Positions 4,689 through 39,630 of a stretch of 64,000 nucleotides of DNA are shown in pieces. Position numbers and translations under genes: made by a program. Within the stretch, counting starts at the first letter, position 1. The number at the start of each line of letters is the position of its first letter. The notes under the pieces were generated by a model that saw only the letters and a program-made list of their open reading frames with translations, ran no database searches and had not been told where the DNA came from. The DNA lies in the IMG/VR virus record IMGVR_UViG_3300033696_000004, positions 36,031 through 100,030 of that record; one strand, given 5' to 3'. The stretch comes from a virus (lineage: Duplodnaviria; Heunggongvirae; Uroviricota; Caudoviricetes).

Positions 4689-4695
4689 AGGTTTT

Positions 4696-5682: not shown

Positions 5683-5685
5683 ATA

Positions 5686-5712
5686 AAAAGGAGCCTATGG
5701 CTCCTTTTTTAT
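5686..5712 (+). terminator. rho-independent terminator
   Basis: aaaaaggagcctatggctcctttttt hairpin plus T run after the purA-like gene. Confidence 0.6.
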
Positions 5713-5724
5713 TAGGAGAAATTC

Positions 5725-14720: not shown

Positions 14721-16121
14721 ATGACTTCATTATTCCAAGCTATGAGTACTGGAACTGGTCGCACTCATAACGGTGCAATTACTAACACGACTTCTTTCAG
14801 TAAGTGTCTAGATTTGTTTAACGTTATCGGTTCAAGTCGTGGTAAAGATTTAACTACAATGTTTGCTAACGCATGGAAAGAAAATCCAGATGTTGCTCTA
14901 CGTATCCTGCAATGGTCTCGTGACTGTCGTGGTGGTGCTGGTGAGCGTGAAGTGTTCCGTATCATCATGCGTCGTATGGCTGGTAACGCAAGCACTCGTG
15001 AACAAGCAATTACAATCCTGCGTAAAGTTCCAGCATTGGGTTACTGGAAAGACGTTGTTAAGTTGTACGAAGTTCAAGAATTCCGTCCAGTTATCAACGA
15101 AATGATTGCTGTTTCATTAGCTGCTGACGATGGTCTATGTGCTAAGTATATGCCACGTAAAGGTGTTACTGCTGCTCAACTTCGCAAAGCATTAGGCTTA
15201 GAAGCTCGTGAATATCGTAAACTGATTGTTTCTATGAGTAACACTGTAGAGCAAAAAATGTGTGCGAAGAACTGGAATGAAATTGACTTCAGTAAGATCC
15301 CATCTCTTGCTGCTGCTCGTTACCAGAAAGCATTCATGAAGAACGCAGAAACGAACTATAATGCATACATAGCTGCTCTTGAAAAAGGTGAAGCTAAGAT
15401 CAATGCGTCAACATTGTTTCCATACGATGTACTAAAATCGTGTATTAGTGGTGTATCTGCTGTTGCTGACCAGCAATGGAAAGCACTTCCAAACTACATG
15501 GAAGGTACAGACGAACGTGTACTACCATTGATTGACGTTTCTGGTTCTATGCACTGTTCAAGCGGTATCAATGGTATTGACTGTATGCACGTTGCAATCT
15601 CTCTTGGTATGTACTTATCAGACAAGCAAGAAGGTGAGTTCAAAGACACTTTCATGACGTTCGATAGTCGTCCACAGATGTTGAAAGCAAGCGGTACGTT
15701 GACTAACCGTTACAATCAGATTCGTCGTTCTCCATGGGGCGGTGGTACTGACATTCAAGCGGTATTCGATACGTTGCTGAATAAAGCTACCGAATCTCGT
15801 GTTGCAGCTGATAAGATGCCAACTACAATTGTTATCCTGTCTGACATGGAATTCAACTCATGTTACGTACGTGGTAAAGATGCATCTGCATTCCGTATGA
15901 TTGAAGCTGAATACGCTCGTCATGGTTATGCTCGCCCTAAGCTAGTATTCTGGAATTTGAATGGTCGTCAATCCAACAATCCAGTAATATTAGGTGAAGG
16001 TGGTACTTGTATGGTATCTGGTTTTAGTCCTGCAATCATGACTTCGGTTCTGTCTGCAAAAGATTTCGACCCATACAGCATCATGCTAGAAGCGGTAATG
16101 AAAGACAAATACGCTTTATAA
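14721..16121 (+). CDS. large vWA-domain protein (TROVE/DUF2828-like architecture)
   Basis: 466 aa. C-terminal MIDAS motif DVSGSMHCSS and a later SDMEFN motif indicate a vWA domain. The N-terminal ~250 aa is a helical domain. Confidence 0.55.
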   Translation: MTSLFQAMSTGTGRTHNGAITNTTSFSKCLDLFNVIGSSRGKDLTTMFANAWKENPDVALRILQWSRDCRGGAGEREVFRIIMRRMAGNASTREQAITILRKVPALGYWKDVVKLYEVQEFRPVINEMIAVSLAADDGLCAKYMPRKGVTAAQLRKALGLEAREYRKLIVSMSNTVEQKMCAKNWNEIDFSKIPSLAAARYQKAFMKNAETNYNAYIAALEKGEAKINASTLFPYDVLKSCISGVSAVADQQWKALPNYMEGTDERVLPLIDVSGSMHCSSGINGIDCMHVAISLGMYLSDKQEGEFKDTFMTFDSRPQMLKASGTLTNRYNQIRRSPWGGGTDIQAVFDTLLNKATESRVAADKMPTTIVILSDMEFNSCYVRGKDASAFRMIEAEYARHGYARPKLVFWNLNGRQSNNPVILGEGGTCMVSGFSPAIMTSVLSAKDFDPYSIMLEAVMKDKYAL

Positions 16122-17108: not shown

Positions 17109-17137
17109 TTTACAGATACCAATTTATAGTGTATAAT
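17108..17137 (+). promoter_or_regulatory. T4-type early promoter
   Basis: gtttac 17108-17113 and tataat 17132-17137. Confidence 0.5.
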
Positions 17138-17167
17138 CTTGACATAAATCAACAAAGAGGAAATCAA

Positions 17168-17818
17168 ATGAAATTAGTTGCTATTGAGGGAAGCATAGGG
17201 ACAGGTAAGTCAACGCTACTTCCGAAACTAGTGAAATCATTATGTGAGCGTACAAGTGATGAATGGGTACAACTCCAAGAACCAGTTAATGATCCTGAAT
17301 TCCTTCGCTTACTGCAAGAATTTACTCAGAATCCAGATGACGCAGTGAAGCGTATTGAATTTCAGATGTACATTACTAATCGTCGTTCTGAAATGCTAAA
17401 AGACATCGATCCAAATGGTAACTATGTTATTGAGCGTAGTTTGTTCTCTGACCTCGTATTCTGCCAAACGAATATGCTTGCTACTGAACGTCCAGATGGT
17501 GCTTACCTAGGTTATTATTATGACATTAAAGACCGTCTAGAACATTATCCACGGGTTAATGCGTTAATCTACTTGAAGTCTGACCCTTATAAGTCGTATA
17601 ACCGCATGTTGGAGCGTGGTCGTGCTGAAGAAGCTGGTACTCCATACGAGTACTTTATGGACTTGGAAGCGTTCCATGTAGCGTGTTTACCTCAAATCTG
17701 TCGCAACTACAAGACCCCTTACATTGAGATCGATTGGACTGATTTTGGTGATGTTGAAGAAGTTGCAAAGAAAATCGAATACACCCTAGCTTATCAAGAT
17801 CAAGTTGGTACATGGTAA
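17168..17818 (+). CDS. deoxynucleoside kinase (dNK family)
   Basis: 216 aa from the ATG at 17168 (RBS aaagaggaaatcaaATG). P-loop IEGSIGTGKST and the ERS/DR motifs of the dCK/dGK family. Confidence 0.7.
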   Translation: MKLVAIEGSIGTGKSTLLPKLVKSLCERTSDEWVQLQEPVNDPEFLRLLQEFTQNPDDAVKRIEFQMYITNRRSEMLKDIDPNGNYVIERSLFSDLVFCQTNMLATERPDGAYLGYYYDIKDRLEHYPRVNALIYLKSDPYKSYNRMLERGRAEEAGTPYEYFMDLEAFHVACLPQICRNYKTPYIEIDWTDFGDVEEVAKKIEYTLAYQDQVGTW

Positions 17819-17880: not shown

Positions 17881-18903
17881 ATGTCAGATTCACCGCATAA
17901 TCTATATAAAACGTTGCCTATGTACCAAGAGCAAGTTGGTATGATTACGAAATACCCCGAATTTGCTAAACTCGCAGATGAACAAATGCATACATTTTGG
18001 CCCCATGATGAACCTAAAGTCGATGATGACATTCATGACTTGCGTACTCGCTTGACTCCATCCGAGTTGAATGGAATAACAATGGTTCTAAAGTTGTTCA
18101 CTTTATACGAACGTAAAGTGGGCGAAGATTACTGGTCTGGTCGTATTACACGTACTTTTAAACGTCCAGAAATTCTTCGTATGTCAACTATGTTTAGTGC
18201 AGTTGAAGAAAATTCACACGCACCATTCTACGATAAGGTTAACGAAGCTCTTTATCTAAACACGGAAGAGTTTTATAACTCGTGGAAGGAAATCAAAGAA
18301 CTAACAGACCGTATCGAATTTGTTGGTCGCTCAGTTAGTGACCCTGATGATGCTAAGTCGTTTGCAGCGTTTACTTTTATCGAAGGTTCTGTTCTTTATA
18401 GTTCGTTTGCATTCCTGAAGCACTTCCAAGCTCAAGAATGTGGAAAAGATTTGATGCGTAACATCTGTCGTGGTGTTGATTTATCCGTAGCTGATGAACA
18501 TGCTCACTCGTTAGGTGGAGCAATGCTTTTCAATCTTTTATGTACGGAAATGAAAGAAAACCATGGCATCGACATCCGTGCTCAGTTACAAGATGAAGTT
18601 TACAAAATGGCTCAAGAAGTATACGATCATGAATGTGGAATCATTGATCTAGTTTATTCTCAAGAAATTTCTGGCATCGATGGCGAAGATTCAAAGGTAT
18701 TCGTTCAATCACGTATCAATCTTTGTTTAAAAAACATGGGTTATGAACCTATGTTCATTATCAAATCAAACCCGATTGCGGAATGGTTTTATAAATCAAT
18801 CAATAGCAAAAAATTAACTGATTTCTTTACTGGTTCTGGTTCTGAATATAACATCAACTGGAATCGTACTGGTTTTTCATCTGTATGGACAAAGGCTCAA
18901 TAA
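17881..18903 (+). CDS. nrdB: ribonucleotide reductase small subunit (class I, NrdB-like)
   Basis: 340 aa. Two E..H iron-ligand motifs (SAVEENSH, ADEHAHS) in a ferritin-like helical context. Lies immediately upstream of the RNR large subunit. Confidence 0.75.
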   Translation: MSDSPHNLYKTLPMYQEQVGMITKYPEFAKLADEQMHTFWPHDEPKVDDDIHDLRTRLTPSELNGITMVLKLFTLYERKVGEDYWSGRITRTFKRPEILRMSTMFSAVEENSHAPFYDKVNEALYLNTEEFYNSWKEIKELTDRIEFVGRSVSDPDDAKSFAAFTFIEGSVLYSSFAFLKHFQAQECGKDLMRNICRGVDLSVADEHAHSLGGAMLFNLLCTEMKENHGIDIRAQLQDEVYKMAQEVYDHECGIIDLVYSQEISGIDGEDSKVFVQSRINLCLKNMGYEPMFIIKSNPIAEWFYKSINSKKLTDFFTGSGSEYNINWNRTGFSSVWTKAQ

Positions 18904-20589
18904 ATGTTTGAACAAATTTCTCAAGAACGTAAACAACTACAACTTACTGGTGAAGTTCCTATGTGGTATACCACACAGGGATACCTTATGTTCAAACGCA
19001 AATACGCATACCAAGGCGAAACTGTTCGTGGAGCGTTCCATCGCATTGCATCTCACTTATCACCACTTGACGGACATCCAGAAGCTTATCAACGTTTCTT
19101 TGATCTGTTGTGGTCTGGTAAGTTAGCACCAAGTACACCCGTTATGTGTAACGTAGGTACTGATCGTGGTATGTCGGTTTCGTGTGCTGGTAACTATGTA
19201 GGCGATTCGGTTGAAGCTTTCTATGATAGTCTATCTGAAGTTGCTATACTATCGAAGAATGGATTTGGTACTGCATCATACTTGGGTGATATTCGTCCTC
19301 GTGGTTCTCTAATCAAATCTACTGGAGAAACTGCTGCTGGTGTAGTTCCTGTTATCGATACTTACATCGATACCAAATCAAAGATTTCCCAAGGCGGTCG
19401 TCGTGGCGAATGGGCTGCTTATGTCAATGTCAACAGTGACGACTTCGATGAAATCATCGGTTATCTTCTAAAGAATCCTGCTGATACTAACATTGGTTGG
19501 GTTTACGAGAAAGAAGATTACGAAGCATTGAAGGCTGGTGACCCAGAAGCATTACGTCGCTGGAATGAAGTCTTGTATGTTCGTGCTCGTGTTGGTAAAG
19601 GTTACATGTGGAAGAACTGGATTGCTAACGAACTAGCTCCACAAGCGATCAAGAATAGCGGAATTAAGATTCGTTCTTCTCAATTATGTACAGAAATTGC
19701 ATTACCATCTGATGAATTTCATACATTCACTTGCATTTTAAGTTCATATAACTTATCATTATGGGATGAAATGACTGACGGAGACCTAAAGTGGGGTGTT
19801 CGTTTCTTGGATGCTATTTGTACCGATTTCTTAAATCAGGCTCGTGGCAAAAAGCACATGGAAAAAGCTGTACGCTTTACAGAAAAAGCACGTGCTCTAG
19901 GTTTGGGTACATTAGGTTTCCATTCTTACTTACAGGACAACATGATCCCGTTTGAGTCTGGTGAAGCCCATATGGTCAATAATCAAATCTACAAGCGTAT
20001 TTGGGATGTTACATTAGAAGCATCTAAAGAACTAGGTGCAGAAAAAGGTATCCCTGAATGGTGCGAAGGTACTGGTCAGCGTAACGCAACATTACTTACA
20101 ATTGCACCTAACATGAGTTCTGCTCTGTTGTGTGGTTCTAAGTCTCAGGGTGTAGAACCTATTGTATGTAACGCATACGAACAACAAACTAATGCTGGTA
20201 ACATGGTTCGTACTAACCCTGCTTTTGTTAAGCTTGCGAAAGAGAAGGGAATGTACTCAGAAGAATTGATGTCGGACTTGGCTATCAACTTCAATGGGTC
20301 AGTTCAACATTTGGGTTGGTTAACCGACCACGAGAAAGCAGTATTCAAGACTGGCTGTGAAATTAACCAAATGGCTGTTATTCGTTTAGCGTCTGCTCGT
20401 CAACGTCGTATCGACCAAGCGCAATCAATCAATCTTCAGTTCGCTGGAGACGAAAAAGAAGAAGTAATCGCTGCTGTGCATAAAGCGTTCATGGACGATC
20501 CACGCATGAAATCACTTTATTACTTACGTTCTGAGCGTGGTGTAAAAGCTTCTACTGGTGAGTCAACATGCGTTGCGTGTGAAGGGTAA
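18904..20589 (+). CDS. nrdA: ribonucleotide reductase large subunit (class I, NrdA-like, no ATP cone)
   Basis: 561 aa. Catalytic-core motifs (PVMCNVG, GFGTASYLGDIRPRGS, GGRRGEWAAYVNV) and a C-terminal CVAC redox pair. Confidence 0.8.
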   Translation: MFEQISQERKQLQLTGEVPMWYTTQGYLMFKRKYAYQGETVRGAFHRIASHLSPLDGHPEAYQRFFDLLWSGKLAPSTPVMCNVGTDRGMSVSCAGNYVGDSVEAFYDSLSEVAILSKNGFGTASYLGDIRPRGSLIKSTGETAAGVVPVIDTYIDTKSKISQGGRRGEWAAYVNVNSDDFDEIIGYLLKNPADTNIGWVYEKEDYEALKAGDPEALRRWNEVLYVRARVGKGYMWKNWIANELAPQAIKNSGIKIRSSQLCTEIALPSDEFHTFTCILSSYNLSLWDEMTDGDLKWGVRFLDAICTDFLNQARGKKHMEKAVRFTEKARALGLGTLGFHSYLQDNMIPFESGEAHMVNNQIYKRIWDVTLEASKELGAEKGIPEWCEGTGQRNATLLTIAPNMSSALLCGSKSQGVEPIVCNAYEQQTNAGNMVRTNPAFVKLAKEKGMYSEELMSDLAINFNGSVQHLGWLTDHEKAVFKTGCEINQMAVIRLASARQRRIDQAQSINLQFAGDEKEEVIAAVHKAFMDDPRMKSLYYLRSERGVKASTGESTCVACEG

Positions 20590-23644: not shown

Positions 23645-23766
23645 GTGGGGTTAGCTCAGTCTGGTAGAGCAAAAGAATGTTAAGTAAAGTCTGTCAAGAC
23701 TTTCTCCAGCAAACTTTAACTAAGTAAATCTTTCGGTCGGTGGTTCAAATCCATCACCCCACACCA
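23645..23766 (+). tRNA. tRNA-like gene A with 45-nt insertion 3' of an intact GUU (Asn-type) anticodon loop
   Basis: Perfect acceptor gtggggt/accccac, D arm gctc-agtctggta-gagc, anticodon stem aaaga/tcttt and T arm ggtgg-ttcaaat-ccatc with CCA encoded. Between the stem halves lie the loop atGTTaa and then 45 extra nt containing the hairpin agtct-gtca-agact followed by ttcTCCAGC. The insert is flanked by the direct repeat taagtaaa. Confidence 0.55.
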
Positions 23767-23770
23767 AAAT

Positions 23771-23890
23771 GGACGGTTAGCTCAATTGGGAGAGCACTTT
23801 ACGATAGTTATCCTGTTAAGGATACATTCAGCGTATTAATCATGCCTATTAAGCAAGTGGTTGCTGGTTCGAATCCAGCACCGTCCACCA
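23771..23890 (+). tRNA. tRNA-like gene B with ~50-nt anticodon-arm insertion
   Basis: Acceptor ggacggt/accgtcc, D arm gctc-aattggga-gagc and T arm gctgg-ttcgaat-ccagc with CCA encoded. The interior holds the hairpin ttatcc-tgttaa-ggata followed by caTTCAGC. Anticodon not assignable. Confidence 0.5.
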
Positions 23891-24050: not shown

Positions 24051-24173
24051 ATAGAAGTAGTTCAGTTGGTTAGAACACCGACCTTATAAAGAACGCAATC
24101 TGATAAGATTTGTATTCAGCAATTATTTCTAACGTCCCGTCGGGGGTCACAGGTTCGAGTCCTGTCTTCTATG
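24051..24173 (+). tRNA. tRNA-like gene D with 49-nt insertion 3' of an intact UAU anticodon loop
   Basis: Acceptor atagaag/cttctat, D arm gttc-agttggtta-gaac, anticodon stem ccgac/gtcgg, loop ctTATaa intact, then a 49-nt insert with the hairpin aatct-gataa-gatt followed by gtaTTCAGC, and T arm acagg-ttcgagt-cctgt. Confidence 0.55.
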
Positions 24174-25817: not shown

Positions 25818-26384
25818 ATGGCTAAACTATACTTCTATCACAGCGTAATGAACGCTGGCAAATCTACTCACTTACTTCAAGTAAACCACAACTATAAAGA
25901 ACGTGGTATGAAGACCGTCCTAATTACTTCTGGTATTGATGACCGTTATGGTGTTGGTAAGATTGCATCACGTATTGGTTTGTCTGCTGAAGCATTGTCA
26001 TTCCATGCAGATACAAACATGTTCGATTTGATTCCGTCTGGTGTTAGCTGTGTTATAGTTGATGAATGTCAATTCCTTACACGTAAGCAAGTAGAACAGC
26101 TTGCAGACTACGTAGATGAAGCTGGTGTACCAGTTATGTGCTACGGTCTACGTGTAGATTTCAAGCAAGGTCTATTCGAAGGTTCGGCTGCTTTATTTGC
26201 GTTAGCTGATAAGTGCGTAGAGATGAAAACCATCTGTCATTGTGGTAGTAAGGCTACTCAGATTGCTAAGGTTGATGAATCTGGACGTATGGTTGATTTC
26301 AACTCACCTCAAGTTGAAATTGGTGGAAATGACCGTTACATCAGCATGTGTCGTCGTCACTACAATGAATTAAAAGATTTTTAA
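25818..26384 (+). CDS. tk: thymidine kinase
   Basis: 188 aa. P-loop MNAGKST, a zinc-ribbon CHCG...C..H at the C-terminus, and overall TK1-type layout as in T4 Tk. Confidence 0.85.
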   Translation: MAKLYFYHSVMNAGKSTHLLQVNHNYKERGMKTVLITSGIDDRYGVGKIASRIGLSAEALSFHADTNMFDLIPSGVSCVIVDECQFLTRKQVEQLADYVDEAGVPVMCYGLRVDFKQGLFEGSAALFALADKCVEMKTICHCGSKATQIAKVDESGRMVDFNSPQVEIGGNDRYISMCRRHYNELKDF

Positions 26385-26835: not shown

Positions 26836-27948
26836 ATGAAAATCAATGAAATGAACAATCGCCAAATTAAAGAATCTGGTCTACACACTAAAGCCGTAGT
26901 AATCGGTCGGTTTGAACCAGTAATGCACCGTGGTCATGTATCCATGATCCATAAAGCTTTAGACGTAGCAAAAGAAGTGTTTATCGTAATCGGATCTGCT
27001 AGTGCTTATCCTGATGTGAAAAACCCAATTTCTGTTGATTTGCGTCAACGTTGTATCTGGAACATCTTGCGTGATGAATTCACGGTGGAACAATGTTCTC
27101 GTATCAAAACTCGTTATGTTAATGACTACAAATACAATGACGAGAAGTGGAAAACTGAAATTCGTATGCAAGTCGGTGAACGTCGTTGGGATAACATCGC
27201 AATGATTGGATTCGAGAAAGACCAAGATTCATACTGGTTAAATGAGTTTGGTTGGACAATGATTCCAGTTGAGCCTACTATGGTAAGCTGGTTGGGTTCG
27301 AGTGTTCCAATGAGTTCTACGTTTATCCGTGATCATTGGCTACGTACTGGTGAAATCTTACTTAAAGAAATGCTACCTCAAGCATGTGTTGATTTCCTAG
27401 AGAAGTTCACGTGGATTAATGGTAAATTCAGTAAAGAGTTCGACCGTCTAAACGAAGAACGTTTGAAGTGGGACAAAGAAATCAAGAAGTTTGATGATTA
27501 CCCATACATGGAATCACTACATGGTGTATGTGCTGACTCTGTAGTATTATGCAATAATCATGTTTTGTTAATCGAACGCAAGTTTGCACCAGGAAAAGGT
27601 GCATGGGCTTTACCAGGCGGTCACAAGAATAGTGATGAAACATTCCGTTATGCTGCATTGCGTGAACTGGAAGAAGAAGTTGGTCTGAAGGTATCGCCTA
27701 AAGTAATTCGTGGTTCTATCAAAGATTCTCAATTGTTTGATGACCCTAAGCGTACTGCTGTATTCTGTAAACCTACAGTTGCTCAGTTTATTGTATTGCA
27801 ACCCGACCACGATGGTAAATTACCACGTGTTCAGGGTGCTGATGATGCTAAACGTGCATTCTGGGTTCCACTTCATGAAATTAAAGAAAACCCACAGAAG
27901 CTATTTGATGACCATTCATGCATCATTAGTTACTTCACTGGTGTTTGA
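26836..27948 (+). CDS. natV: bifunctional NMN adenylyltransferase / Nudix ADP-ribose pyrophosphatase (NatV/NadM-Nudix type)
   Basis: 370 aa. N-terminal nucleotidyltransferase motif GRFEPVMHRGH (HxGH-like) and C-terminal Nudix box GGHKNSDETFRYAALRELEEEVGL. Confidence 0.75.
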   Translation: MKINEMNNRQIKESGLHTKAVVIGRFEPVMHRGHVSMIHKALDVAKEVFIVIGSASAYPDVKNPISVDLRQRCIWNILRDEFTVEQCSRIKTRYVNDYKYNDEKWKTEIRMQVGERRWDNIAMIGFEKDQDSYWLNEFGWTMIPVEPTMVSWLGSSVPMSSTFIRDHWLRTGEILLKEMLPQACVDFLEKFTWINGKFSKEFDRLNEERLKWDKEIKKFDDYPYMESLHGVCADSVVLCNNHVLLIERKFAPGKGAWALPGGHKNSDETFRYAALRELEEEVGLKVSPKVIRGSIKDSQLFDDPKRTAVFCKPTVAQFIVLQPDHDGKLPRVQGADDAKRAFWVPLHEIKENPQKLFDDHSCIISYFTGV

Positions 27949-27951
27949 TAA

Positions 27952-27977
27952 AAGGAGACCTTCGGGTCTCCTTTTTT
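27952..27977 (+). terminator. rho-independent terminator
   Basis: ggagaccttcgggtctcc hairpin plus T run. Confidence 0.65.
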
Positions 27978-28091
27978 GATCTAAATCACGCAAATAAATG
28001 TTGATTTCAATAGTTTGCGTGGTATAATGTTTACGTTGAGTTAACCAAATAGGAGTTTTTATGTTCAACACTCAATTTAAAAGGAAATATC

Positions 28092-29300
28092 ATGCTACAA
28101 TCTATTATAGGAATCTTATTCCTCCTAGCGTTAGGATATGCGTTCTCTGAGAATCGTAATGCGATTAGCTGGAGGGCTGTAATCGGTTCATTTGCAATAC
28201 TAATGAGTATTTCCGCATTTGTACTGGGAACCGATTTCGGTGCTGATGTTCTATTAGCAGCATCGAAAGGTGTTGGTTCTGTTTTTTCCTACGGAACTGA
28301 AGGTATTAAGTTTGTATTCGGTAACCTAGTTACATTCCAAGTTGAAGGACTTGGATTCATATGGGCTTTCCAAGTACTTCCAATGATTATATTCACCGCA
28401 TCGCTCACATCATTATTATACTACTATGGTATTATGCAATGGTTCGTTCGTATTATCGGTGGCGGTCTTCAGAAACTGTTAGGTACATCCCGTGCGGAAT
28501 CAATGAGTGCAGCTGGTAACATTGTACTAGGTCAAACTGAAGCACCACTTCTAGTTCGTCCTTATCATCCAATATTAACTCGTGCTCAAATATTTGCAAT
28601 CATGGTCGGTGGTCTTGCTTCAATTGCTGGTTCTATCCTAGCTGGTCTAGCTGGAATGGGTGTTGAACTCAAGTACCTGATTATGGCGTGTTTCATGTCG
28701 GCTCCAGCTGGTTTATTGTTCGCTAAATTAATCATCCCCGAAACTGAAACGACTATCGACGAAGTTCCCGAAGAACCCGAAGAAGATAAAGCAACAAGTT
28801 TCATTGATGCAATCGCAAAGGGTGCAATGACTGGTCTAGCAATCGCTGGTATCGTTGGTGCAGTTATCATTGCATGTATCGGTATCATGGCTTTGCTTAA
28901 CGGTATACTTGGTTATGTCGGTGGATTTGTTGGTTACGCAAGTCTGTCGGTTGACACAATCCTTGGATTCGTCTTCGCTCCTATCGCATGGATGATCGGT
29001 GTTCCTTGGTCAGAAGCAATGCAAGCTGGTTCTCTGATTGGTCAAAAGATCGCAATGAATGAGTTCGTAGCTTACGCAAGCTTCGGCACAATGGAATTGT
29101 CTGCTAAGACATCTGGTATCATCACAATTGCACTATGTGGATTCGCTAACATTAGTTCGGTTGCAATGGTTGTAGGTGCTATGAGTAAGATGATACCAAC
29201 AAAAGCTGGTATCATCGCATCTCTTGGTATGAAAGTACTATTAGCTGCTACTATGGCTAACCTAATGGCTGCTACAGTCGTAGGTCTGTTCATATCATAA
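28092..29300 (+). CDS. concentrative nucleoside transporter (NupC/CNT family)
   Basis: 402 aa polytopic membrane protein. Recognisable NupC signatures: GTEGIKFVFGN, FQVLPMIIF, and SESMSAAGNIVLGQTEAPLLVRPY matching the conserved SxAxxGN(I/V)FLGQTEAPLL(I/V)RPY motif. Confidence 0.75.
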   Translation: MLQSIIGILFLLALGYAFSENRNAISWRAVIGSFAILMSISAFVLGTDFGADVLLAASKGVGSVFSYGTEGIKFVFGNLVTFQVEGLGFIWAFQVLPMIIFTASLTSLLYYYGIMQWFVRIIGGGLQKLLGTSRAESMSAAGNIVLGQTEAPLLVRPYHPILTRAQIFAIMVGGLASIAGSILAGLAGMGVELKYLIMACFMSAPAGLLFAKLIIPETETTIDEVPEEPEEDKATSFIDAIAKGAMTGLAIAGIVGAVIIACIGIMALLNGILGYVGGFVGYASLSVDTILGFVFAPIAWMIGVPWSEAMQAGSLIGQKIAMNEFVAYASFGTMELSAKTSGIITIALCGFANISSVAMVVGAMSKMIPTKAGIIASLGMKVLLAATMANLMAATVVGLFIS

Positions 29301-29305
29301 TAGAA

Positions 29306-29329
29306 GGGAGCCTTTCGGCTCCCTTTTTA
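29306..29329 (+). terminator. rho-independent terminator
   Basis: gggagcctttcggctccc hairpin plus T run. Confidence 0.65.
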
Positions 29330-29415
29330 TTTGTCTAAAATAATTTAAAATTATGTTGACAGTATTCAGGTAATCCCCTATACTTCTCACATCAACTAAG
29401 AAGAAGGAAATAAAC

Positions 29416-29973
29416 ATGAAATACAAATTCGTACATAATAACTCGCTAACTAAGATTGAGAAAACTAAAGTCTACTTTGGTGAAAACTCTAAAAACTTGG
29501 TTTCATTCGGAAGTACATATACTAAAGATCAAGAAGTTAAATGTCTGTCATGTAATAAAGACACTCTTGTTCTACAAACTCCATCCAAATCGGTGTTATT
29601 ACAAAACTGTATTGTCATTGTTGATCTTACTAAACGTAATGTTGGTGTTGCTGATGATCATTCTTTCCACAATGCGGTAGCGGTTACACGAAATGGTAAC
29701 CAACCGTTGCAGATTTACGGTATTGTAATTGACGACACTGGTTGTCCATACACAATGGGTGATCGTGAAGTACGTGAAGTTAATCCAGTTAAACGTGGTG
29801 ATAAGTTAGTGAATAACCGTGGTCGTGAAATCACCGTTACATATGTTGCAGATGATGGTTCATTTGCTTATGAGTATTTGCGCAATTCACATAAAGTCGA
29901 ATTTGCATCTGCATACATGTCTATCAACGATCATGGTTCTGCTTCTTACGGTATCAAAAAAGAACTATTATAG
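29416..29973 (+). CDS. hypothetical protein
   Basis: 185 aa ORF downstream of a TTGACA promoter. No motif recognised. Confidence 0.45.
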   Translation: MKYKFVHNNSLTKIEKTKVYFGENSKNLVSFGSTYTKDQEVKCLSCNKDTLVLQTPSKSVLLQNCIVIVDLTKRNVGVADDHSFHNAVAVTRNGNQPLQIYGIVIDDTGCPYTMGDREVREVNPVKRGDKLVNNRGREITVTYVADDGSFAYEYLRNSHKVEFASAYMSINDHGSASYGIKKELL

Positions 29974-30353
29974 TGGATAAATTTACTGGAGAAGAGGTGT
30001 TCGAACACATTATCAATCTGAGTGCTATGTTGCAAGACGCAAAAAATGGAAAGTTCGATAGTAAACGTGAAATTTTAAAAGAATTTCGTGAAATCAAATC
30101 GAATGTGCTTGCAGCAGAGAAACTTTGTATTGATTCTCATATCGAACAAATGAATTGTATATGTTCCAAATTCAATAAGCCAGTGTGGACACTTCGTCGT
30201 AACCTTGTAGAATATTATTATCATTTCGAAAAGACTTGTAATAACTGTGGAAAGGTTCATACTACAACATTAAAGAAATGGAACAATCACACGGATCCTT
30301 CCCCAGAAGGATTCGAAGGTGCAACTAAAGCTTTCTATAACTTGGACATTTAA
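29973..30353 (+). CDS. hypothetical protein
   Basis: 126 aa. Possible zinc ribbon C..C...CNNC near the C-terminus. Start overlaps the upstream stop. Confidence 0.45.
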   Translation: MDKFTGEEVFEHIINLSAMLQDAKNGKFDSKREILKEFREIKSNVLAAEKLCIDSHIEQMNCICSKFNKPVWTLRRNLVEYYYHFEKTCNNCGKVHTTTLKKWNNHTDPSPEGFEGATKAFYNLDI

Positions 30354-30361
30354 GGAACAAT

Positions 30362-31402
30362 ATGAAAACAATTATGACAACAATCTTCGGTTCACATCTA
30401 TACGGTTTGAACACTGAAAATAGCGATATGGATTACAAGTCAATCTTTATTCCTGAAACAAAATACTTGGTTCTACAAACAGCAATACGTAACATCAGTC
30501 ATTCTACTGGTGGTCAAGATGCTAAGAACACAGCAGAAGATGTAGATACGGAACTTTTCGCACTACATGAATGGATTAAACTGGCTCTACAAGGTGAGAC
30601 TGTAGCACTTGACATGCTTCATACTACACCTGAAATGTTGCTTGAAACTTCTCCTACGTGGGAGTTCATTCAAGAAAACCGTTGGCGTTTCTACACCACT
30701 GACATGCGTTCATACGTGGGTTACGTGAAGAAACAAGCTGCTAAGTACGGTGTCAAAGGTACACGTCTAGATGCTCTACAGAAGAGTATCGATGAAGCTA
30801 ATGAAGCACTGTGCTTAGCTAATACGTATGATGGAGAAATTGATGTTAATACCATCAAACTAGGTGATGTTATTGACTACCTACCAGAAGATCATTACCG
30901 TAGTAAAGTTACCGACACCAAAGGTGAACATGAGTACCACTTCTACAAGGTATTAGAAAAGAAGTTTCAGACTACGCTGCGTGTAACTGAATACATCTCT
31001 ATCTTGCAAGGTATCTACAACTCTTACGGTTCTCGTGCTAAAGAAGCACAAGAGAACAAAGGTATCGACTGGAAAGCATTGTCACATGCTATCCGTGGTG
31101 GTTACCAGTTGAAAGAGATCTACACTACTGGTGACTTGAAGTACCCGTTAAAACAGCGTGAGTTCCTTCTAGCGGTTAAGCGTGGTGAACTTGATTTCAT
31201 CACGCAAGTTAAACCAGAACTTGAAAAAATTGTTGACGAAGTAGAGAAACTTGCTATAGAATTGGAAACATCTGGTAAGCTTCCACGTAAACCTGATCGT
31301 AAATTCTGGGATGACTTCGTATACAAAGTATACGGTGGAGAAATCTATCACGATTATGACCGTTACTTGGAAGAAGAAGACAATAACGAAAGTCATATGT
31401 AA
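30362..31402 (+). CDS. Pol-beta superfamily nucleotidyltransferase (function unknown)
   Basis: 346 aa. N-terminal GSHLYGLNTENSDMDY fits the GS-x9-13-DxD minimal NTase motif. The C-terminal ~200 aa are helical. Confidence 0.55.
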   Translation: MKTIMTTIFGSHLYGLNTENSDMDYKSIFIPETKYLVLQTAIRNISHSTGGQDAKNTAEDVDTELFALHEWIKLALQGETVALDMLHTTPEMLLETSPTWEFIQENRWRFYTTDMRSYVGYVKKQAAKYGVKGTRLDALQKSIDEANEALCLANTYDGEIDVNTIKLGDVIDYLPEDHYRSKVTDTKGEHEYHFYKVLEKKFQTTLRVTEYISILQGIYNSYGSRAKEAQENKGIDWKALSHAIRGGYQLKEIYTTGDLKYPLKQREFLLAVKRGELDFITQVKPELEKIVDEVEKLAIELETSGKLPRKPDRKFWDDFVYKVYGGEIYHDYDRYLEEEDNNESHM

Positions 31403-33928: not shown

Positions 33929-35365
33929 ATGGAATTCTTCAATAAAAATCTAGCAGTAAGTACAGACAGCTACAAAGCATCTCACGCATGTAAATCACAA
34001 AATGAACATGTAAAAACGGTTGGTCAGTTCCCAGAAGGTACTACCCATACTTCTTATTACATCGAAGCACGTACCGAAGATGAAGAACTTGTTGCAGCTG
34101 GCATGAACTTCGTTGCTAAAGTCTTGGAGCAAGGCATCACATTAGTTAAAGTCAATCGTGCAAATCTAATCTACCGTGCTCACTTTGGTCGTGAAATCTT
34201 CAACTACGATGCTTGGGTTCGTATCGCTACTGAGTTTGGTGGTAAACTACCAATCGACATGTGGGCTGTTCCTGAAGGTACTATAATTCCTTCTAAGACA
34301 GCAATCGCAGTTATTGAAAATACCCATCCTGATTACCCATGGTTACCAGGAAATCTAGAAACATTCGCACTACGTGGTGTCTGGTATCCAACATCCGTTA
34401 CTACTAAGTCGTACCGTTGTTTGAAAGTTTTGAAAAAATACATGGATATGACTTCTGACCTAAAAGGTGAAGCATATACTACGACACTGAAAACCCGTTT
34501 ACATGACTTTGGTGCTCGTGGTGCTTCTTCTGAAGAGTCTGCTGCAATTGGTGGTCTAGCTCACCTTTATAACTTCATAGGTACTGATACCGTAGAAGCA
34601 TTGGTACTAGCTCAAGACCTATACAATGTTGCATGTGCTGGTTTCTCTATTCCTGCTCGTGAGCATAGTACAACAATCAGCTACGAAGACGAAGATGATG
34701 CATACCGCAACAGCATTGAGTTATACGGTGAAGGCTACTACTCTTGTGTAATGGACTCAACTGATTACGAAGCTGCTGTAGAACGTGTATGTTTAACCAT
34801 GAAAGATGACATCATTGCTAAGGGTGGTACGTTTGTATTCCGTCCTGACAGTGGTAGCATGATCGATAACATTATGTTCACGCTAAACATCCTTGGTAAG
34901 TACTTCGGTTACACTCGCAATAGCAAAGGCTACAAGGTTCTACATCCAAGTGTTCGTATCATCCAAGGTGATGACATTAACTCAGCTGACGACATCGAAC
35001 GTGTTCTGAGTTGGATGGAAACCCATCGTTGGGCTGCTGAGAACATTGCGTTTGGTATGGGTGGTGGTCTTCTACAGAAGGTTAACCGTGATACTCATAA
35101 GTTTGCTATGAAGCTAAGTGCTATCAAAGTGAATGGCGAATGGCGTGGTGTTCGTAAGTGTCCAAAGGGCGCAGAATGGAAAGCTAGTAAGAAAGGTCGT
35201 TTACGTACAATCCGTCGCCATGATGGTAAGTTGGAAACGGTTGACATCCTTACTAACGATACATTCGAAGGTAGTCTTGAAATGTTCAAGTTCATTCAAG
35301 ATGGTAAGTTAGGTTACACGGATACATTAGAAAACATTCGTAAGTGTATTGACAATAGCTTATAA
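33929..35365 (+). CDS. nadV: nicotinamide phosphoribosyltransferase (NAMPT/NadV)
   Basis: 478 aa. The N-terminus NLAVSTDSYKASH matches the NAMPT hallmark (..TDSYK.TH). Length and overall pattern are typical of NadV. Confidence 0.8.
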   Translation: MEFFNKNLAVSTDSYKASHACKSQNEHVKTVGQFPEGTTHTSYYIEARTEDEELVAAGMNFVAKVLEQGITLVKVNRANLIYRAHFGREIFNYDAWVRIATEFGGKLPIDMWAVPEGTIIPSKTAIAVIENTHPDYPWLPGNLETFALRGVWYPTSVTTKSYRCLKVLKKYMDMTSDLKGEAYTTTLKTRLHDFGARGASSEESAAIGGLAHLYNFIGTDTVEALVLAQDLYNVACAGFSIPAREHSTTISYEDEDDAYRNSIELYGEGYYSCVMDSTDYEAAVERVCLTMKDDIIAKGGTFVFRPDSGSMIDNIMFTLNILGKYFGYTRNSKGYKVLHPSVRIIQGDDINSADDIERVLSWMETHRWAAENIAFGMGGGLLQKVNRDTHKFAMKLSAIKVNGEWRGVRKCPKGAEWKASKKGRLRTIRRHDGKLETVDILTNDTFEGSLEMFKFIQDGKLGYTDTLENIRKCIDNSL

Positions 35366-35772: not shown

Positions 35773-35873
35773 GTATTGGTAAGTTGTTAGCGTTAATGAT
35801 TATTGCTGGTGTTAGTGGGTTTGCAATGGGATGGTTCATTGCTTCATTTTTAGATGTTACGGGTGCATTGTAA
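35769..35873 (+). CDS. 35-aa hydrophobic peptide (single transmembrane helix)
   Basis: MSIGKLLALMIIAGVSGFAMGWFIASFLDVTGAL. It is coupled ATGA to the upstream ORF and TAATG to the sirtuin gene. Not in the supplied ORF track (too short). Confidence 0.35.
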   Translation: MSIGKLLALMIIAGVSGFAMGWFIASFLDVTGAL

Positions 35874-36577
35874 TGGGTAAAATCTTTATTATTTCAGGTG
35901 CTGGTTTATCAGCTGAGTCAGGTGTTCCAACTTTCCGTGATGCAAACGGTCTATGGCATAATCATAAAATCGAAGATGTTTGTTATATCAGTACGTGGCA
36001 GCAAAACTATCACTTAGTTCACCGTTTCTATAATGAACGTCGTGTTGAAATGGGTAATGTGGAACCAAATGCAATGCATAAAGCTATTGCTGGTTGGCAG
36101 AAAGAGTTCGGTAAAGAAAATGTAATCAATGTTACAACTAACGTAGATGACTTACTAGAACGTGCTGGCGTTGAAGATGCAGTCCATCTTCATGGCGAAA
36201 TCACTAAGATTGTCGATACTCGCACTGGCGAAATAGAAGACATTGGTTACACTGCTTTCGATAGCAAATTCCTCGATACTGAAGTCCATAAACCTTACGT
36301 TGTATTCTTCGGTGAACATGCTCCAGAATATGAAACATTAAGCGCAATGACTAATTTTGACATGCAAGGTGGTGATATTGTTGTCTTCATCGGTATGAGT
36401 TTTGTAGTGGTTCCAGTTGGTATGTGTCTACCGTGGTGTCGTAATGTATCTACGATCAATATCAATCCTGATCCTAAGACTGGTTACGACCACGAATGGG
36501 ATTTACACATTGAGTCAACCGCAACGGAAGCTATCACACAACTGGATCGCATTATCCGCAATAATTTGACAAAATAA
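35873..36577 (+). CDS. Sir2-family NAD-dependent deacylase (sirtuin)
   Basis: ~234 aa from the ATG at 35873. GAGLSAESGVPTFRDANGLW is the canonical sirtuin NAD-binding motif (GAGIS..SGIPTFRG..GLW). HG motif at HLHGE. Confidence 0.75.
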   Translation: MGKIFIISGAGLSAESGVPTFRDANGLWHNHKIEDVCYISTWQQNYHLVHRFYNERRVEMGNVEPNAMHKAIAGWQKEFGKENVINVTTNVDDLLERAGVEDAVHLHGEITKIVDTRTGEIEDIGYTAFDSKFLDTEVHKPYVVFFGEHAPEYETLSAMTNFDMQGGDIVVFIGMSFVVVPVGMCLPWCRNVSTININPDPKTGYDHEWDLHIESTATEAITQLDRIIRNNLTK

Positions 36578-36631: not shown

Positions 36632-37123
36632 ATGACAGTGAAACAGTTGAAATCTGGCAAAACATACAAAGAAGCAAAGGAGACATTATATCATCAACAG
36701 AATGGTAAATGTCTCCTTTGTGATCGTAACCTAGAATCAAACATTCAAAAGAACCATTTAGACCACGACCACGCTCTAACAGGATCTGATGCTGGTAGAG
36801 TTCGTGGATTGTTATGTAATCTGTGTAATGGTACTGAAGGTATAGTCAAACATAAGTTCAATCGTTCTGGACTAGTCAGACAAGAAGTTGATTACATCAA
36901 ATGGTTGGAAAATCTAGTCATTTATCTAAAGAAAGATTATTCTAGAAATGACTTCCATCCTCAGTACATAACTGATATAATAAAGCAGTTCTCTAGATTG
37001 TCTCTAAGTGAGATGAAAAATGAAATGCACAAAAGAGGTTATACCCATGAACAATCTGACAAAAAATCAGAGTTGGTTAAAAAATTCAGCAAACAATTTC
37101 GAAAGGAGCAACACAGCTTATGA
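36632..37123 (+). CDS. 49: recombination endonuclease VII (T4 gp49-like)
   Basis: 163 aa. Strong similarity to T4 EndoVII as I recall it: NGKCLLCDRNLE...NHLDHDHALTG..AGRVRGLLCNLCNGTEG..KHKFNRSGL...DYIKWLENL. Confidence 0.85.
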   Translation: MTVKQLKSGKTYKEAKETLYHQQNGKCLLCDRNLESNIQKNHLDHDHALTGSDAGRVRGLLCNLCNGTEGIVKHKFNRSGLVRQEVDYIKWLENLVIYLKKDYSRNDFHPQYITDIIKQFSRLSLSEMKNEMHKRGYTHEQSDKKSELVKKFSKQFRKEQHSL

Positions 37124-38997
37124 ACAACTGGAAAACCAATATGATCCATGAGATCAAAGAGCTATACAATGGTACTAATAATGCAGTTAACAACGAAAAT
37201 GCAAATAAAGATGCAATGGTTATTGCAACAAAGCGTGATTTACTTGCTGGTATCGTATCCAAATCATTTGCGTTAAATGAACTATTACCAGTACACATTG
37301 CCAAAGCTCATGTTGATGGCGATTTACATTTTCACGATTTGGATTATTCACCATTGGGTAGCTACTTCAACTGTATGATCGTTGACATACCTGAGATGTT
37401 TAAAGGCTTTACTATGGGTTCTGCCGAAGTTGAGACTCCTAAGTCGATCAACACTGCAATGAATCTAGTTGCTCAGATTGTTGCTAATGTGTCGTCTAAT
37501 ACTTACGGTGGTACTACCATCCAGCAGTTAGATGAAATCATGGTTCCTTATGTTCGTTCATCTTATAACAAACACTTATCATTGTTCCTACGTGTGTACG
37601 AAGGTGATGAACGCAAAGCTGCTATCATGGCAGAAGAACTGACCGAAAAGGAAGTGTATGACGCTTGTCAATCTCTTGAATATGAATTGAATACGATTTA
37701 TTCATCTAACGGTCAAACTCCATTCGTTACTATTAACTTTGGACTTGGTACTTGTTGGGAATCTCGTTTAGTTCAAAAGGGTATTTTGCAGACTCGCATC
37801 AACGGTCTAGGTAAGACTAAGAAAACAGCTGTATTCCCTAAACTAGTTTTCACAATTAAAGATGGAGTCAACCACAAACCGTTTGACCCCAACTACGATG
37901 TCAAGCAATTGGCATTGGAGTGTGCTTCTAAACGTATGTATCCTGACATACTGAACTATGATAAACTGGTAGAGATTACTGGTGACTTTAAAGCTCCTAT
38001 GGGATGTCGTAGCTTCCTTTCGCCATGGACTGATGCAAACGGTAAGTATACTACTATGGGTCGCAACAACATGGGTGTAGTTTCTGTGAACATTCCACGC
38101 ATTGCAATCGAAGCTAATGGTGACATTGAAAAATTCTGGGAACTATTAGACCAGCGTGTTGGATTTGTCAAAGAAGCTCTTGATGTTCGGGTTGACCGTC
38201 TGCGTACAGTACAAGCAAAAGAAGCTCCTATTCTTTACATGCATGGTGCTCTTGGTGTTCGTTTACAGCCAGAAGATTACGTATTCAGTATCCTAGAAAA
38301 TGGTCGTGCATCAGTTTCTATGGGTTACATTGGTTTACACGAAGCAGCAAATGCTATGTTTGGCGATGACGAACATACGGTTGAGTCTCCACGTAAAACG
38401 CATTTTACTGTTGAAATCGTTGAGCGTTTACGTAATTACACTGACAAATGGAAGAAGGAAAGCGGTCTAGGTTACAGCTTATACTCAACTCCATCTGAAA
38501 GCCTATGTGACCGTTTCTGTAAGCTTGACAGCAAGAAGTTTGGTGTTATCGCTGGTGTGAATGATAAAGAGTACTACACTAACTCTTTCCATCAATGTGT
38601 TCTTAAAAAGACAACACCTTACGAAAAGATTGACTTCGAAGCTCGTTACCCACAATATACAAGTGGTGGTTTCATCTCTTATGTTGAATTCCCTAACGTT
38701 AAGCATAACCTGAAAGGTCTTGAAACTATTTGGGATTACACATACACTCGTTTACCATACTTTGGTACGAACACTCCAGTTGATAACTGTAGTGAATGTG
38801 GTTTCTATGGTGAATCTAAGGCTACTAAGCAGGGATTTGAATGTCCATGCTGTGGCAACAAAGATCCTCGTACATTATCGGTTACACGTCGTGTGTGTGG
38901 TTACTTGGGTAATCCTGGTGCTCGTCCTTATTGTGTTGGTAAACAAGTTGAAGTTATTGGTCGTGTCAAGCACATGTCACCACTCGGAAAACTATAA
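37120..38997 (+). CDS. nrdD: anaerobic ribonucleoside-triphosphate reductase (class III)
   Basis: 625 aa. C-terminal glycyl-radical motif RRVCGYLG and a Zn ribbon CSECG...CPCCG. Followed by the activase gene. Confidence 0.85.
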   Translation: MNNWKTNMIHEIKELYNGTNNAVNNENANKDAMVIATKRDLLAGIVSKSFALNELLPVHIAKAHVDGDLHFHDLDYSPLGSYFNCMIVDIPEMFKGFTMGSAEVETPKSINTAMNLVAQIVANVSSNTYGGTTIQQLDEIMVPYVRSSYNKHLSLFLRVYEGDERKAAIMAEELTEKEVYDACQSLEYELNTIYSSNGQTPFVTINFGLGTCWESRLVQKGILQTRINGLGKTKKTAVFPKLVFTIKDGVNHKPFDPNYDVKQLALECASKRMYPDILNYDKLVEITGDFKAPMGCRSFLSPWTDANGKYTTMGRNNMGVVSVNIPRIAIEANGDIEKFWELLDQRVGFVKEALDVRVDRLRTVQAKEAPILYMHGALGVRLQPEDYVFSILENGRASVSMGYIGLHEAANAMFGDDEHTVESPRKTHFTVEIVERLRNYTDKWKKESGLGYSLYSTPSESLCDRFCKLDSKKFGVIAGVNDKEYYTNSFHQCVLKKTTPYEKIDFEARYPQYTSGGFISYVEFPNVKHNLKGLETIWDYTYTRLPYFGTNTPVDNCSECGFYGESKATKQGFECPCCGNKDPRTLSVTRRVCGYLGNPGARPYCVGKQVEVIGRVKHMSPLGKL

Positions 38998-39104
38998 TGA
39001 CCCCATCACAAGCAGCATGGCTTCAACGTATGAAAGACATGCAACGTTTACGTAAGTTAGCACAAGAGTTACGTGAAAACAAAACTAAAAAGTAGTTTAC
39101 AACC

Positions 39105-39138
39105 AAAGGGTGATCTGTTAAGATCACCCTTTCTTTTT
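39105..39138 (+). terminator. rho-independent terminator
   Basis: aagggtgatctgttaagatcaccctt hairpin plus T run. Confidence 0.6.
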
Positions 39139-39150
39139 GGAATAAACAAA

Positions 39151-39630
39151 ATGAAATACTGCAATTATCACAAAATCTATCCGTGTGACCTATCAAACGG
39201 TGAAGGTGTACGGTTAACAATTTTCTTCTCAGGGTGTATTCATGGCTGCAAAGGATGCTATAATACGTCAACGTGGGAACCAACATCAGGAGTACAATTC
39301 AATGAAGAAACAATTAACAAACTGCTGGACGACTGTGCTAATCATACTGGGCTGTCCCTTTCAGGTGGTGACCCTCTGCATCATTGTAATCGCTGGACTG
39401 TTTATGAACTTGTCTCTCGTTTTAAACAGTTATACCCAGAAAAGGATATATGGATGTGGACTGGATTCACCCATGAAGACATCAAAGATGAACCAGAAGT
39501 TGCAAAAATTCTACAACACATTGATGTAATGATTGACGGTAAGTATGAAAGGGATTTACCCCCACGTCAAGACCAGCCGTGGCGTGGAAGTTCAAACCAA
39601 CGCTTAATTAAAATTAAAGAAATCAGTTGA
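39151..39630 (+). CDS. nrdG: anaerobic RNR activating protein (radical SAM)
   Basis: 159 aa from the ATG at 39151. CNYHKIYPCD...GCIHGCKGCYN cysteine pattern of NrdG activases. Confidence 0.8.
   Translation: MKYCNYHKIYPCDLSNGEGVRLTIFFSGCIHGCKGCYNTSTWEPTSGVQFNEETINKLLDDCANHTGLSLSGGDPLHHCNRWTVYELVSRFKQLYPEKDIWMWTGFTHEDIKDEPEVAKILQHIDVMIDGKYERDLPPRQDQPWRGSSNQRLIKIKEIS

Follow-up and report, generated by a model that had tools for sequence, protein, structure and literature searches.

The DNA considered here, hereafter the window, is a stretch of 64,000 nucleotides from the IMG/VR virus record IMGVR_UViG_3300033696_000004 (positions 36,031 to 100,030). It is part of a genuine T4-like phage genome, uncultured and of marine origin, and at 28092-29300 it carries a gene whose product belongs to the family of concentrative nucleoside transporters (CNTs), the family of NupC. 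The gene and the signals around it are laid out as follows:

27951-27980, + strand: terminator-type hairpin, GGAGACC-TTCG-GGTCTCC followed by a T run, which ends the upstream gene for an NMNAT-Nudix protein
28001-28028, + strand: candidate sigma-70 or T4-early-type promoter, TTGATT-N16-TGgTATAAT, TG-extended, with a score of 10/12
28081-28085, + strand: Shine-Dalgarno AAGGA, read from the sequence, 6 nucleotides before the ATG
28092-29300, + strand: CNT/NupC-family nucleoside transporter, predicted to be Na+-coupled, ATG start, 402 amino acids, assigned from its domains, fold and site residues
29302-29327, + strand: intrinsic terminator hairpin of the transporter gene, 11 pairs (6 of them G-C) and a T run

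The transporter, its binding site and its transcription unit

The open reading frame (ORF) had been picked out earlier, in a sequence-only reading, as a 402-residue NupC-family transporter; its coordinates and length match exactly, and both motifs quoted for it are present (GTEGIKFVFGN at residues 68-78 and SMSAAGNIVLGQTEAPLLVRPY at residues 137-158). Together the motifs span columns that are invariant in a 17-sequence alignment of diverse CNTs, namely G71, F74, F76, G77, N143, G147, Q148, T149, E150, P152 and P157. Three Pfam domains, Nucleos_tra2_N (residues 6-79), Gate (92-190) and Nucleos_tra2_C (195-398), follow one another in order with their profiles covered end to end, scoring 68.9, 64.0 and 233.3 bits against gathering cut-offs of 27, 29.6 and 32.3, respectively. 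The best solved relatives, Vibrio cholerae vcCNT (PDB 3TIJ) and Neisseria wadsworthii CNTnw, align across the whole length, and the vcCNT match covers residues 2-402 at 53% identity (E 1.2e-120). An AlphaFold2 model (pLDDT 82.9, pTM 0.85) folds into a scaffold domain and a transport domain with 8 transmembrane (TM) helices and two re-entrant hairpins (HP1 and HP2). Foldseek matches this model to 3TIJ, 4PD6, 5L26 and 5L2A with TM-scores of 0.91-0.94 and root-mean-square deviations of 2.0-2.6 Å, while the next match outside the family has a TM-score of 0.16 at E 0.16 and no other fold does better than E 0.1. Topology and structure could have revealed a different kind of protein; the CNT fold was found instead, and the family assignment holds at the levels of sequence, fold, binding-site residues and Na+ site. 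The ORF encodes an intact CNT-family transporter, and the protein itself is an ordinary CNT. The source gene call at JGI begins 37 codons later and yields a product of 365 amino acids (P0001). The longer start is preferred because vcCNT aligns from residue 2 and the AAGGA Shine-Dalgarno lies 6 nucleotides upstream; an exact-sequence look-up of the 365-residue form returned no record, and the full 402-residue product was found on record.

Residue sets for the substrate and ion sites were taken from published work on the family (bioRxiv 10.1101/2023.02.03.527023), with the PDB chain numbering corrected for a 6-residue tag. In vcCNT the nucleoside is contacted by G153, Q154, T155, E156, V188, E332, F366, N368 and S371, and the Na+ site is formed by N149, V152, S183 and I184 (bioRxiv 10.1101/2023.02.03.527023). 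The corresponding contact positions of the phage protein are G147, Q148, T149, E150, I182, E324, F351, N353 and S356, eight of the nine being identical to vcCNT, and the ninth, where I182 stands in place of V188, having the isoleucine of Escherichia coli NupC (Ile181). At the Na+ site, N143, S177 and I178 are identical to vcCNT and L146 replaces V152. The V152 position is one that we take to be a backbone-carbonyl Na+ ligand. E. coli NupC, which is coupled to protons, does not have the Na+-site residues (bioRxiv 10.1101/2023.02.03.527023), whereas the Asn, Ser and Ile ligands are retained in the phage protein, whose canonical site predicts Na+ coupling. Four positions switch pyrimidine and purine selectivity between human CNT1 and CNT2, and E. 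coli NupC takes pyrimidine nucleosides and adenosine (bioRxiv 10.1101/2023.02.03.527023). In the phage protein this quartet reads GQ/SI, the same as G146-Q147/S180-I181 of E. coli NupC, with G-Q in HP1 and S-I in TM4; the two proteins are also similar in length, at about 400 amino acids. Because all four positions are identical, the phage protein would be expected to share the pyrimidine range of NupC, perhaps with adenosine.

Compared with vcCNT (3TIJ, 4PD6) and CNTnw (5L26), the phage protein has the same architecture, the same contact residues except V188I, and the same Asn, Ser and Ile Na+ ligands. It differs in being 12-16 residues shorter through loop deletions, in residing in the genome of a virulent-type T4-like phage, and in the pocket substitutions G187S and L259I, both of which are common to the clade of 401-residue bacterial CNTs to which it is most closely related among cellular proteins.

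From hairpin to hairpin, with a promoter-like site, Shine-Dalgarno and ORF between, the transporter gene appears to be a self-contained unit. The upstream hairpin has a folding free energy of -17.3 kcal/mol (z-score -4.93, with none of 200 shuffled sequences folding as well) and is predicted to insulate the unit from read-through; the downstream one reaches -18.5 kcal/mol (z-score -5.02). The sequence-only reading had given the gene its own TTGACA promoter and its own terminator, of which the terminator stands. The TTGACA box lies at 29356-29384, past the stop codon of the transporter and 32 nucleotides ahead of the gene at 29416, and it is therefore assigned to that gene. Near the transporter gene, Rfam returned no riboswitch or leader RNA. 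The leader also holds an upstream ORF of 29 codons (MFNTQFKRKYHATIYYRNLIPPSVRICVL) at 28061-28150 on the + strand, which runs across the CNT start codon in a different frame and has a strong TAGGAG Shine-Dalgarno 5 nucleotides upstream. It could be a chance ORF or an element of translational control.

Residence in the phage and relatives of the gene

The window comes from a T4-like genome. Patches of gp43, UvsX and gp41 are 71-80% identical to Straboviridae, and EndoVII, a gp46-like ATPase, NrdD, NrdG, NrdA, NrdB, dNK, Mom and tk are encoded as well, together with 18 tRNAs; nearly all genes lie on one strand, and T4-type genes flank the transporter on both sides. Megablast of 27000-30500 against cultured phages gave no match, and no deposited phage is close to the window. 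Since the sequence is metagenomic and the nearest cellular homologues of the transporter are 74% identical, bacterial DNA mis-joined into a phage contig might be suspected, but such an artefact is vanishingly improbable. The junctions are identical in two assemblies of different length: 21,209 nucleotides recur with 0 mismatches in a 128,588-bp ENA scaffold, and the transporter protein is also encoded on a 119,931-bp JGI contig. The G+C content at third codon positions (GC3) is 0.318, close to the 0.308 +/- 0.048 that is the mean of the window (z-score 0.22), and the relative synonymous codon usage of the gene correlates with that of resident genes at 0.90, within the resident range of 0.86-0.96, compared with 0.52 for a bacterial homologue. 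Furthermore, no bacterial sequence is closer than 74%, and the promoter and the hairpins on either side of the gene resemble in style those of the phage genes nearby. An assembly chimera was rejected on the matching junctions of the second assembly and the phage-like codon usage. Because GC3 and codon usage match the phage, the gene is neither a chimera nor a fresh capture, its ameliorated codon usage pointing to long residence.

The nearest sequences are found in two viral contigs, L001 and L002, at 78-79% identity, followed by the metagenome fragments L007 and L008 (75-76%) and then by the bacterial 401-residue clade of Photobacterium, Ferrimonas, Shewanella, Marinobacter and some Vibrio (71-74%). 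L001 and L002 have no gene in common with the window besides the transporter; they encode proteins of kinds usual in large phages of Vibrio and Pseudoalteromonas. L007 is distantly related to this second phage group, with which it shares Dam (59% identity) and two further ORFs, and within this lineage divergence extends to 75% identity for the CNT, 45% for an accompanying flavoprotein and 59% for Dam. Four other close metagenome matches (L021-L024) were rejected as phage, their loci being bacterial. In a bootstrapped neighbour-joining tree the bacterial CNTs form a clade that excludes all viral copies (99% support), and all five copies that are viral or viral-like fall into one group (67% support). 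Pairwise ratios of nonsynonymous to synonymous substitution (dN/dS) range from 0.04 to 0.15, and the one unsaturated comparison, L001 with L002, gives 0.039 at a dS of 0.17. Purifying selection thus seems to have preserved the transporter in at least two phage groups that are not related to each other.

Bacterial members of the clade have the same binding-site signature, NLSI/GQTEI/EFNS, as the phage protein, and their genes sit in a characteristic cassette. A flavoprotein of about 180 amino acids, most like KefF, KefG and NQO-type quinone reductases, directly precedes the CNT in each of the 19 bacterial loci examined, and in 11 of these a uridine-phosphorylase-like gene and a cNMP-binding regulator follow it. 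In the second phage group and in L008 the flavoprotein is still present upstream of the CNT, whereas the window copy has none of these partners. Located flavoprotein genes (KefF/KefG/NQO2-like, 170-188 amino acids, 1-17 nucleotides from the CNT) are the following:

L003, 9428-9994: flavoprotein before CNT
L002, 3864-4397: flavoprotein before CNT
L007, 7153-7668: flavoprotein before CNT
L008, 179-685: flavoprotein before CNT

The flavoprotein evolves much faster than the transporter (38-45% identity compared with 73-78%). Its PDB matches include NQO2, the oxidoreductase that uses dihydronicotinamide riboside (NRH) and quinone, and its role could be that of an ancillary subunit, like KefF, or of an NRH oxidoreductase. 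Just upstream of the pair in L007 lies a membrane protein of the Na_Ca_ex family (6034-7089, 351 amino acids), so that this viral-like contig holds two transporters side by side.

As phage cargo, the CNT family is rare. Searching 50,697 cultured-phage records with the transporter by tblastn gave no credible match: the 8 hits were weak, none exceeded 31% identity, and the records behind them are unannotated and look as if they derive from hosts. When 2.9 million IMG/VR contigs were scanned under the guidance of a profile, 10 CNT loci were found with only one close relative among them, and about half of the 10 come from prophage calls in isolate genomes. PHROG 25571 exists and is unannotated, and a full-text literature search returned no report of a phage-borne CNT, NupC or nucleoside transporter. 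The rarity that the sequence-only reading had ascribed to membrane transporters in T4-like phages is therefore upheld for this family across both collections.

Relatives of the window phage were reached through the NMNAT-Nudix protein in the protein database (67-77% identity); scans of IMG/VR with this protein and with the downstream 185-residue ORF gave no match. In L057 the backbone is that of the window, running tk, two further genes, NMNAT-Nudix, a slot, RlaP, Band_7, NAMPT, SIR2 and EndoVII, and the slot holds five small ORFans in place of the transporter. L055 has yet other genes in this slot, and in Klebsiella phage Matisse small hypothetical genes come after tk, band-7 and NMNAT-Nudix. 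The CNT and the two ORFans after it are therefore lineage-specific cargo in a hypervariable slot, and the closeness of the transporter to tk and to genes of NAD+ metabolism is inherited backbone synteny. In L056 (SRR26958223), an importer of the SDF sodium:dicarboxylate-symporter family (401 amino acids) lies just upstream of the NMNAT-Nudix gene and is followed by a Cys_Met_Meta_PP pyridoxal-phosphate enzyme and a RidA-like protein (4462-7314). This stretch looks like a cargo module of an importer plus enzymes and, as the importer is a different Na+-coupled one, importer cargo recurs in this phage group. Around tk itself, L055 encodes a thymidine kinase product of 448 rather than about 190 amino acids (599-1945), and in L054 two NUMOD3 homing-endonuclease-like ORFs adjoin the gene, which suggests mobile-element activity there in this phage group.

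Such a slot invites the view that the transporter is a passenger, a captured host gene with little or no effect on phage fitness or one serving general host nutrition as a route to carbon or nitrogen. What lies in the slot between NMNAT-Nudix and RlaP does differ from one related phage to the next and is mostly ORFan, and the insertion of the transporter turned up in a single phage population. However, full codon amelioration implies long residence without decay, and all functional residues are intact. The viral copies are under strong purifying selection and have been retained across a diverged phage lineage, and the gene has its own promoter-like site, Shine-Dalgarno and terminator. A passenger role is accordingly improbable, though it keeps some small chance of being correct.

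Neighbouring metabolic genes and possible alternative substrates

Any role proposed for the transporter has to be set against the metabolic genes that the phage encodes elsewhere in the window, which are listed here in order of position:

4612-5682, + strand: PurZ-like (PurA-like) ORF, about 335-356 amino acids; PDB 6FM1/6FKO/6TNH at E 1e-118, S-2L PurZ 7ODX at 2e-55
17129-17818, + strand: dNK-family deoxynucleoside kinase, Pfam dNK 2.3e-23
17881-20589: NrdB and NrdA, confirmed
25818-26384, + strand: thymidine kinase tk, Pfam TK 2.4e-49, NCBIfam 257.7 bits against a cut-off of 195
26836-27948, + strand: NMNAT-Nudix protein (NatV type), directly upstream of the transporter
33929-35365, + strand: NAMPT, 438 bits, above the NCBIfam cut-off
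35831-36577, + strand: SIR2-family protein
37120-39630: NrdD and NrdG, confirmed

The nucleotide-metabolism setting claimed in the sequence-only reading is real as far as tk, dNK, NrdAB and NrdDG are concerned; the dUTPase-like gene that it also named has no counterpart among the ORFs scanned. The closest flanking functions, those of NAD+ salvage (NMNAT-Nudix, NAMPT and SIR2), were absent from that account. Neighbours at 24673, 25232, 26449, 29416, 29973, 32786 and 33267 matched nothing in Pfam, NCBIfam or PHROGs. NMNAT-Nudix and NAMPT constitute a NARP2-type NAD+ reconstitution pair, to which SIR2 is added, and the set is syntenic in L056 and L057.

These genes raise the possibility that the transporter is the import arm of an NAD+ module, taking up nicotinamide riboside, nicotinic-acid riboside or NRH for conversion to NAD+ via NMNAT-Nudix and NAMPT, and so countering host defences that deplete NAD+. 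That NMNAT-Nudix is the next gene upstream of the transporter, and that NAMPT and SIR2 follow 5-7 kb downstream, is in keeping with this, as is the gene order of NARP3, in which a NadR-like NMNAT enzyme is likewise followed by the PnuC importer (PMC13464706). In Enterobacteriaceae phages NARP3 restores NAD+ against Sir2-HerA (PMC13464706). The ancestral partner of the clade, the KefF/NQO-family flavoprotein with NQO2 among its PDB matches, would also fit, and no PnuC-like protein, or indeed any polytopic protein besides the transporter, was found in the window.

The likeness to NARP3 lies in a phage importer of a nucleoside-type metabolite directly downstream of a gene for an NMNAT-containing enzyme, and it goes little further. 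The NARP3 importer has a PnuC/SWEET-like fold, whereas the window importer is a CNT in which Pfam, NCBIfam and fold searches gave no PnuC signal. The NARP3 enzyme combines NMNAT and ribosylnicotinamide-kinase domains; the NadR model matches only the NMNAT part (residues 17-147) of the NMNAT-Nudix protein, which has no such kinase domain, and hence the phage has no direct route of its own from the riboside to nicotinamide mononucleotide. NAMPT with NMNAT, as in NARP2, needs only intracellular nicotinamide. Unlike in NARP3, a terminator and a separate promoter-like site divide the NMNAT-Nudix and CNT genes into separate transcription units, and the substrates are probably ordinary nucleosides, for which the base- and ribose-contact residues are fully canonical. 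Human CNT1-3 do not take up nicotinamide riboside, and only CNT3 weakly aids uptake of nicotinic-acid riboside (PMC7866510). In relatives that share the NAD genes the slot is filled by unrelated ORFs, the CNT of the other viral lineage is not adjacent to NAD genes, and the bacterial clade pairs with a uridine-phosphorylase-like gene. A role in NAD+ supply is for these reasons distinctly unlikely. If it were true, the transporter would represent an independently evolved CNT counterpart of NARP3 and a new substrate class for bacterial CNTs.

A further possibility concerns the supply of the Z base, 2-aminoadenine, whereby imported deoxyguanosine would be phosphorylated to dGMP by the phage dNK and passed to the PurZ-like enzyme. 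Both a PurZ-like protein and a dNK-family kinase are indeed encoded in the window. The PurZ-like ORF matches true PurA only at 5e-19, and its best matches, 6FM1, 6FKO and 6TNH, are deposited as 'adenylosuccinate synthetase'. We take these three entries to be the PurZ of Vibrio phage phiVC8. A T4-like phage with such a gene may have Z-base DNA, but the transporter is very unlikely to be part of that pathway. Its GQ/SI quartet matches the pyrimidine-selective E. coli NupC and not the purine-selective hCNT2, and the PurZ-like gene lies 23 kb away. PDB searches found neither MazZ nor DatZ in the two ORFs after it, and no PurZ occurs in the examined stretches of other CNT-bearing phage loci.

Several other features of the window were recorded. 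A radical-SAM protein of 354 amino acids (3624-4688, + strand) adjoins the PurZ-like gene, and the NrdA-like large subunit (18904-20589, + strand) has 561 amino acids, unusually short for class I, and Pfam recognizes its barrel domain as three disjoint segments. Like the radical-SAM protein, a Mom-family protein (13996-14634, + strand, 3e-35) and a protein with DUF2828/DUF7788 (14721-16121, + strand) are cargo of the DNA- or nucleotide-modification type, the last also kept in L056 and L057. The only long minus-strand ORF, of 503 amino acids at 6882-8393, lies within the tRNA array and matched nothing in Pfam or Rfam. Its stretch has a GC content of 0.47, compared with about 0.37 in the rest, a GC skew that is strongly reversed and several overlapping ORFs in other frames, and may be a mobile or foreign insert. 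Three Rfam tRNA matches at 23645-23763, 23771-23887 and 24051-24173 (+ strand), 117-123 nucleotides long, cover the full model at 49-58 bits and were not called by ARAGORN. Either tRNA genes that carry inserts of about 45-50 nucleotides or tRNA-like elements could explain them.

A probable role: nucleoside import in support of phage DNA synthesis

The most plausible role of the transporter, and on balance a probable one, is that of an early-expressed importer of pyrimidine (deoxy)nucleosides, driven by Na+, that feeds the Tk and dNK of the phage. A phage ancestor would have acquired the gene from a marine gammaproteobacterium, and it would now form a self-contained early unit in a T4-like phage, expressed from its sigma-70-type promoter soon after infection. 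The product, a trimeric, elevator-type and Na+-coupled protein, would insert in the host inner membrane, where the sodium gradient would drive the concentration of exogenous nucleosides, mainly pyrimidine (deoxy)nucleosides and perhaps adenosine. Tk, acting on thymidine and deoxyuridine, and dNK would phosphorylate the imported nucleosides and trap them as monophosphates, and import would thereby supplement de novo synthesis through NrdAB and NrdDG as well as the recycling of host DNA. That the phage redirects nucleoside uptake towards its own kinases had been proposed from the sequence, and the present analysis supports it computationally, Tk and dNK being the natural trapping kinases; early expression, the substrate range, coupling to Tk and dNK and a benefit to phage fitness, and with them the physiological role, are what we infer from these data.

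Bacterial gene organization offers a precedent. In CNT loci the transporter gene stands beside dNK and tk or beside a uridine-phosphorylase-like gene, and this was counted in favour of nucleoside salvage. For instance, in the bacterial loci L013-L019 dNK homologues lie directly upstream of the CNT, forming dNK-CNT-tk clusters. In Bacillus subtilis, the dra-nupC-pdp operon (cited in PMC4723616) and others like it tie a CNT genomically to enzymes that process the imported nucleosides, much as here. Such bacterial operons serve catabolism or salvage for the cell, whereas the partner kinases of the phage are spread over 11 kb and form no operon. In Vibrio, extracellular DNA is converted to nucleosides, which NupC systems that depend on Na+ bring into the cell (PMC4723616).

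A number of observations weigh against nucleoside import for phage DNA synthesis or soften parts of it. The gene immediately upstream encodes an NAD+-salvage enzyme and not a nucleotide kinase. Because the transporter-less Matisse, L055 and L057 keep tk in the same region, its proximity provides no evidence of co-selection. No trace of the flavoprotein was found in the window phage, while the other viral copies and all 19 bacterial ones have it, and if it were needed for activity the window copy could behave differently. The pattern TTGAYW-N16/17-TATAAT has a single match in the 64 kb, with 0.36 expected by chance, so the assignment at 28001-28028, a candidate only, comes from position and not from statistics. 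No close relative of the window phage carrying the transporter was found, and the signs of purifying selection bear less directly on its own lineage. Finally, the NCBIfam model TIGR00804 gives the transporter 416.2 bits (E 1.5e-124, model positions 1-401), short of its curated cut-off of 442. This shortfall appears to be a property of the whole 401-residue clade and not decay specific to the phage, because the model gives 414.2 bits to a bacterial member of the clade for which NCBI itself uses the name NupC/NupG CNT transporter, and 402.3 to the other viral copy.

What is new here is the stable residence of a CNT in phages; the protein family itself is well known. Nucleotide-metabolism genes are common in phages and act inside the cell, and an importer would extend viral control to the capacity for uptake. 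Taken together, the presence of a CNT in two unrelated marine phage groups and the phage PnuC of the 2026 NARP3 report suggest that metabolite import is an under-recognised phage strategy. In the sea, nucleoside import of this kind would tie phage productivity to dissolved nucleosides and to the turnover of extracellular DNA.

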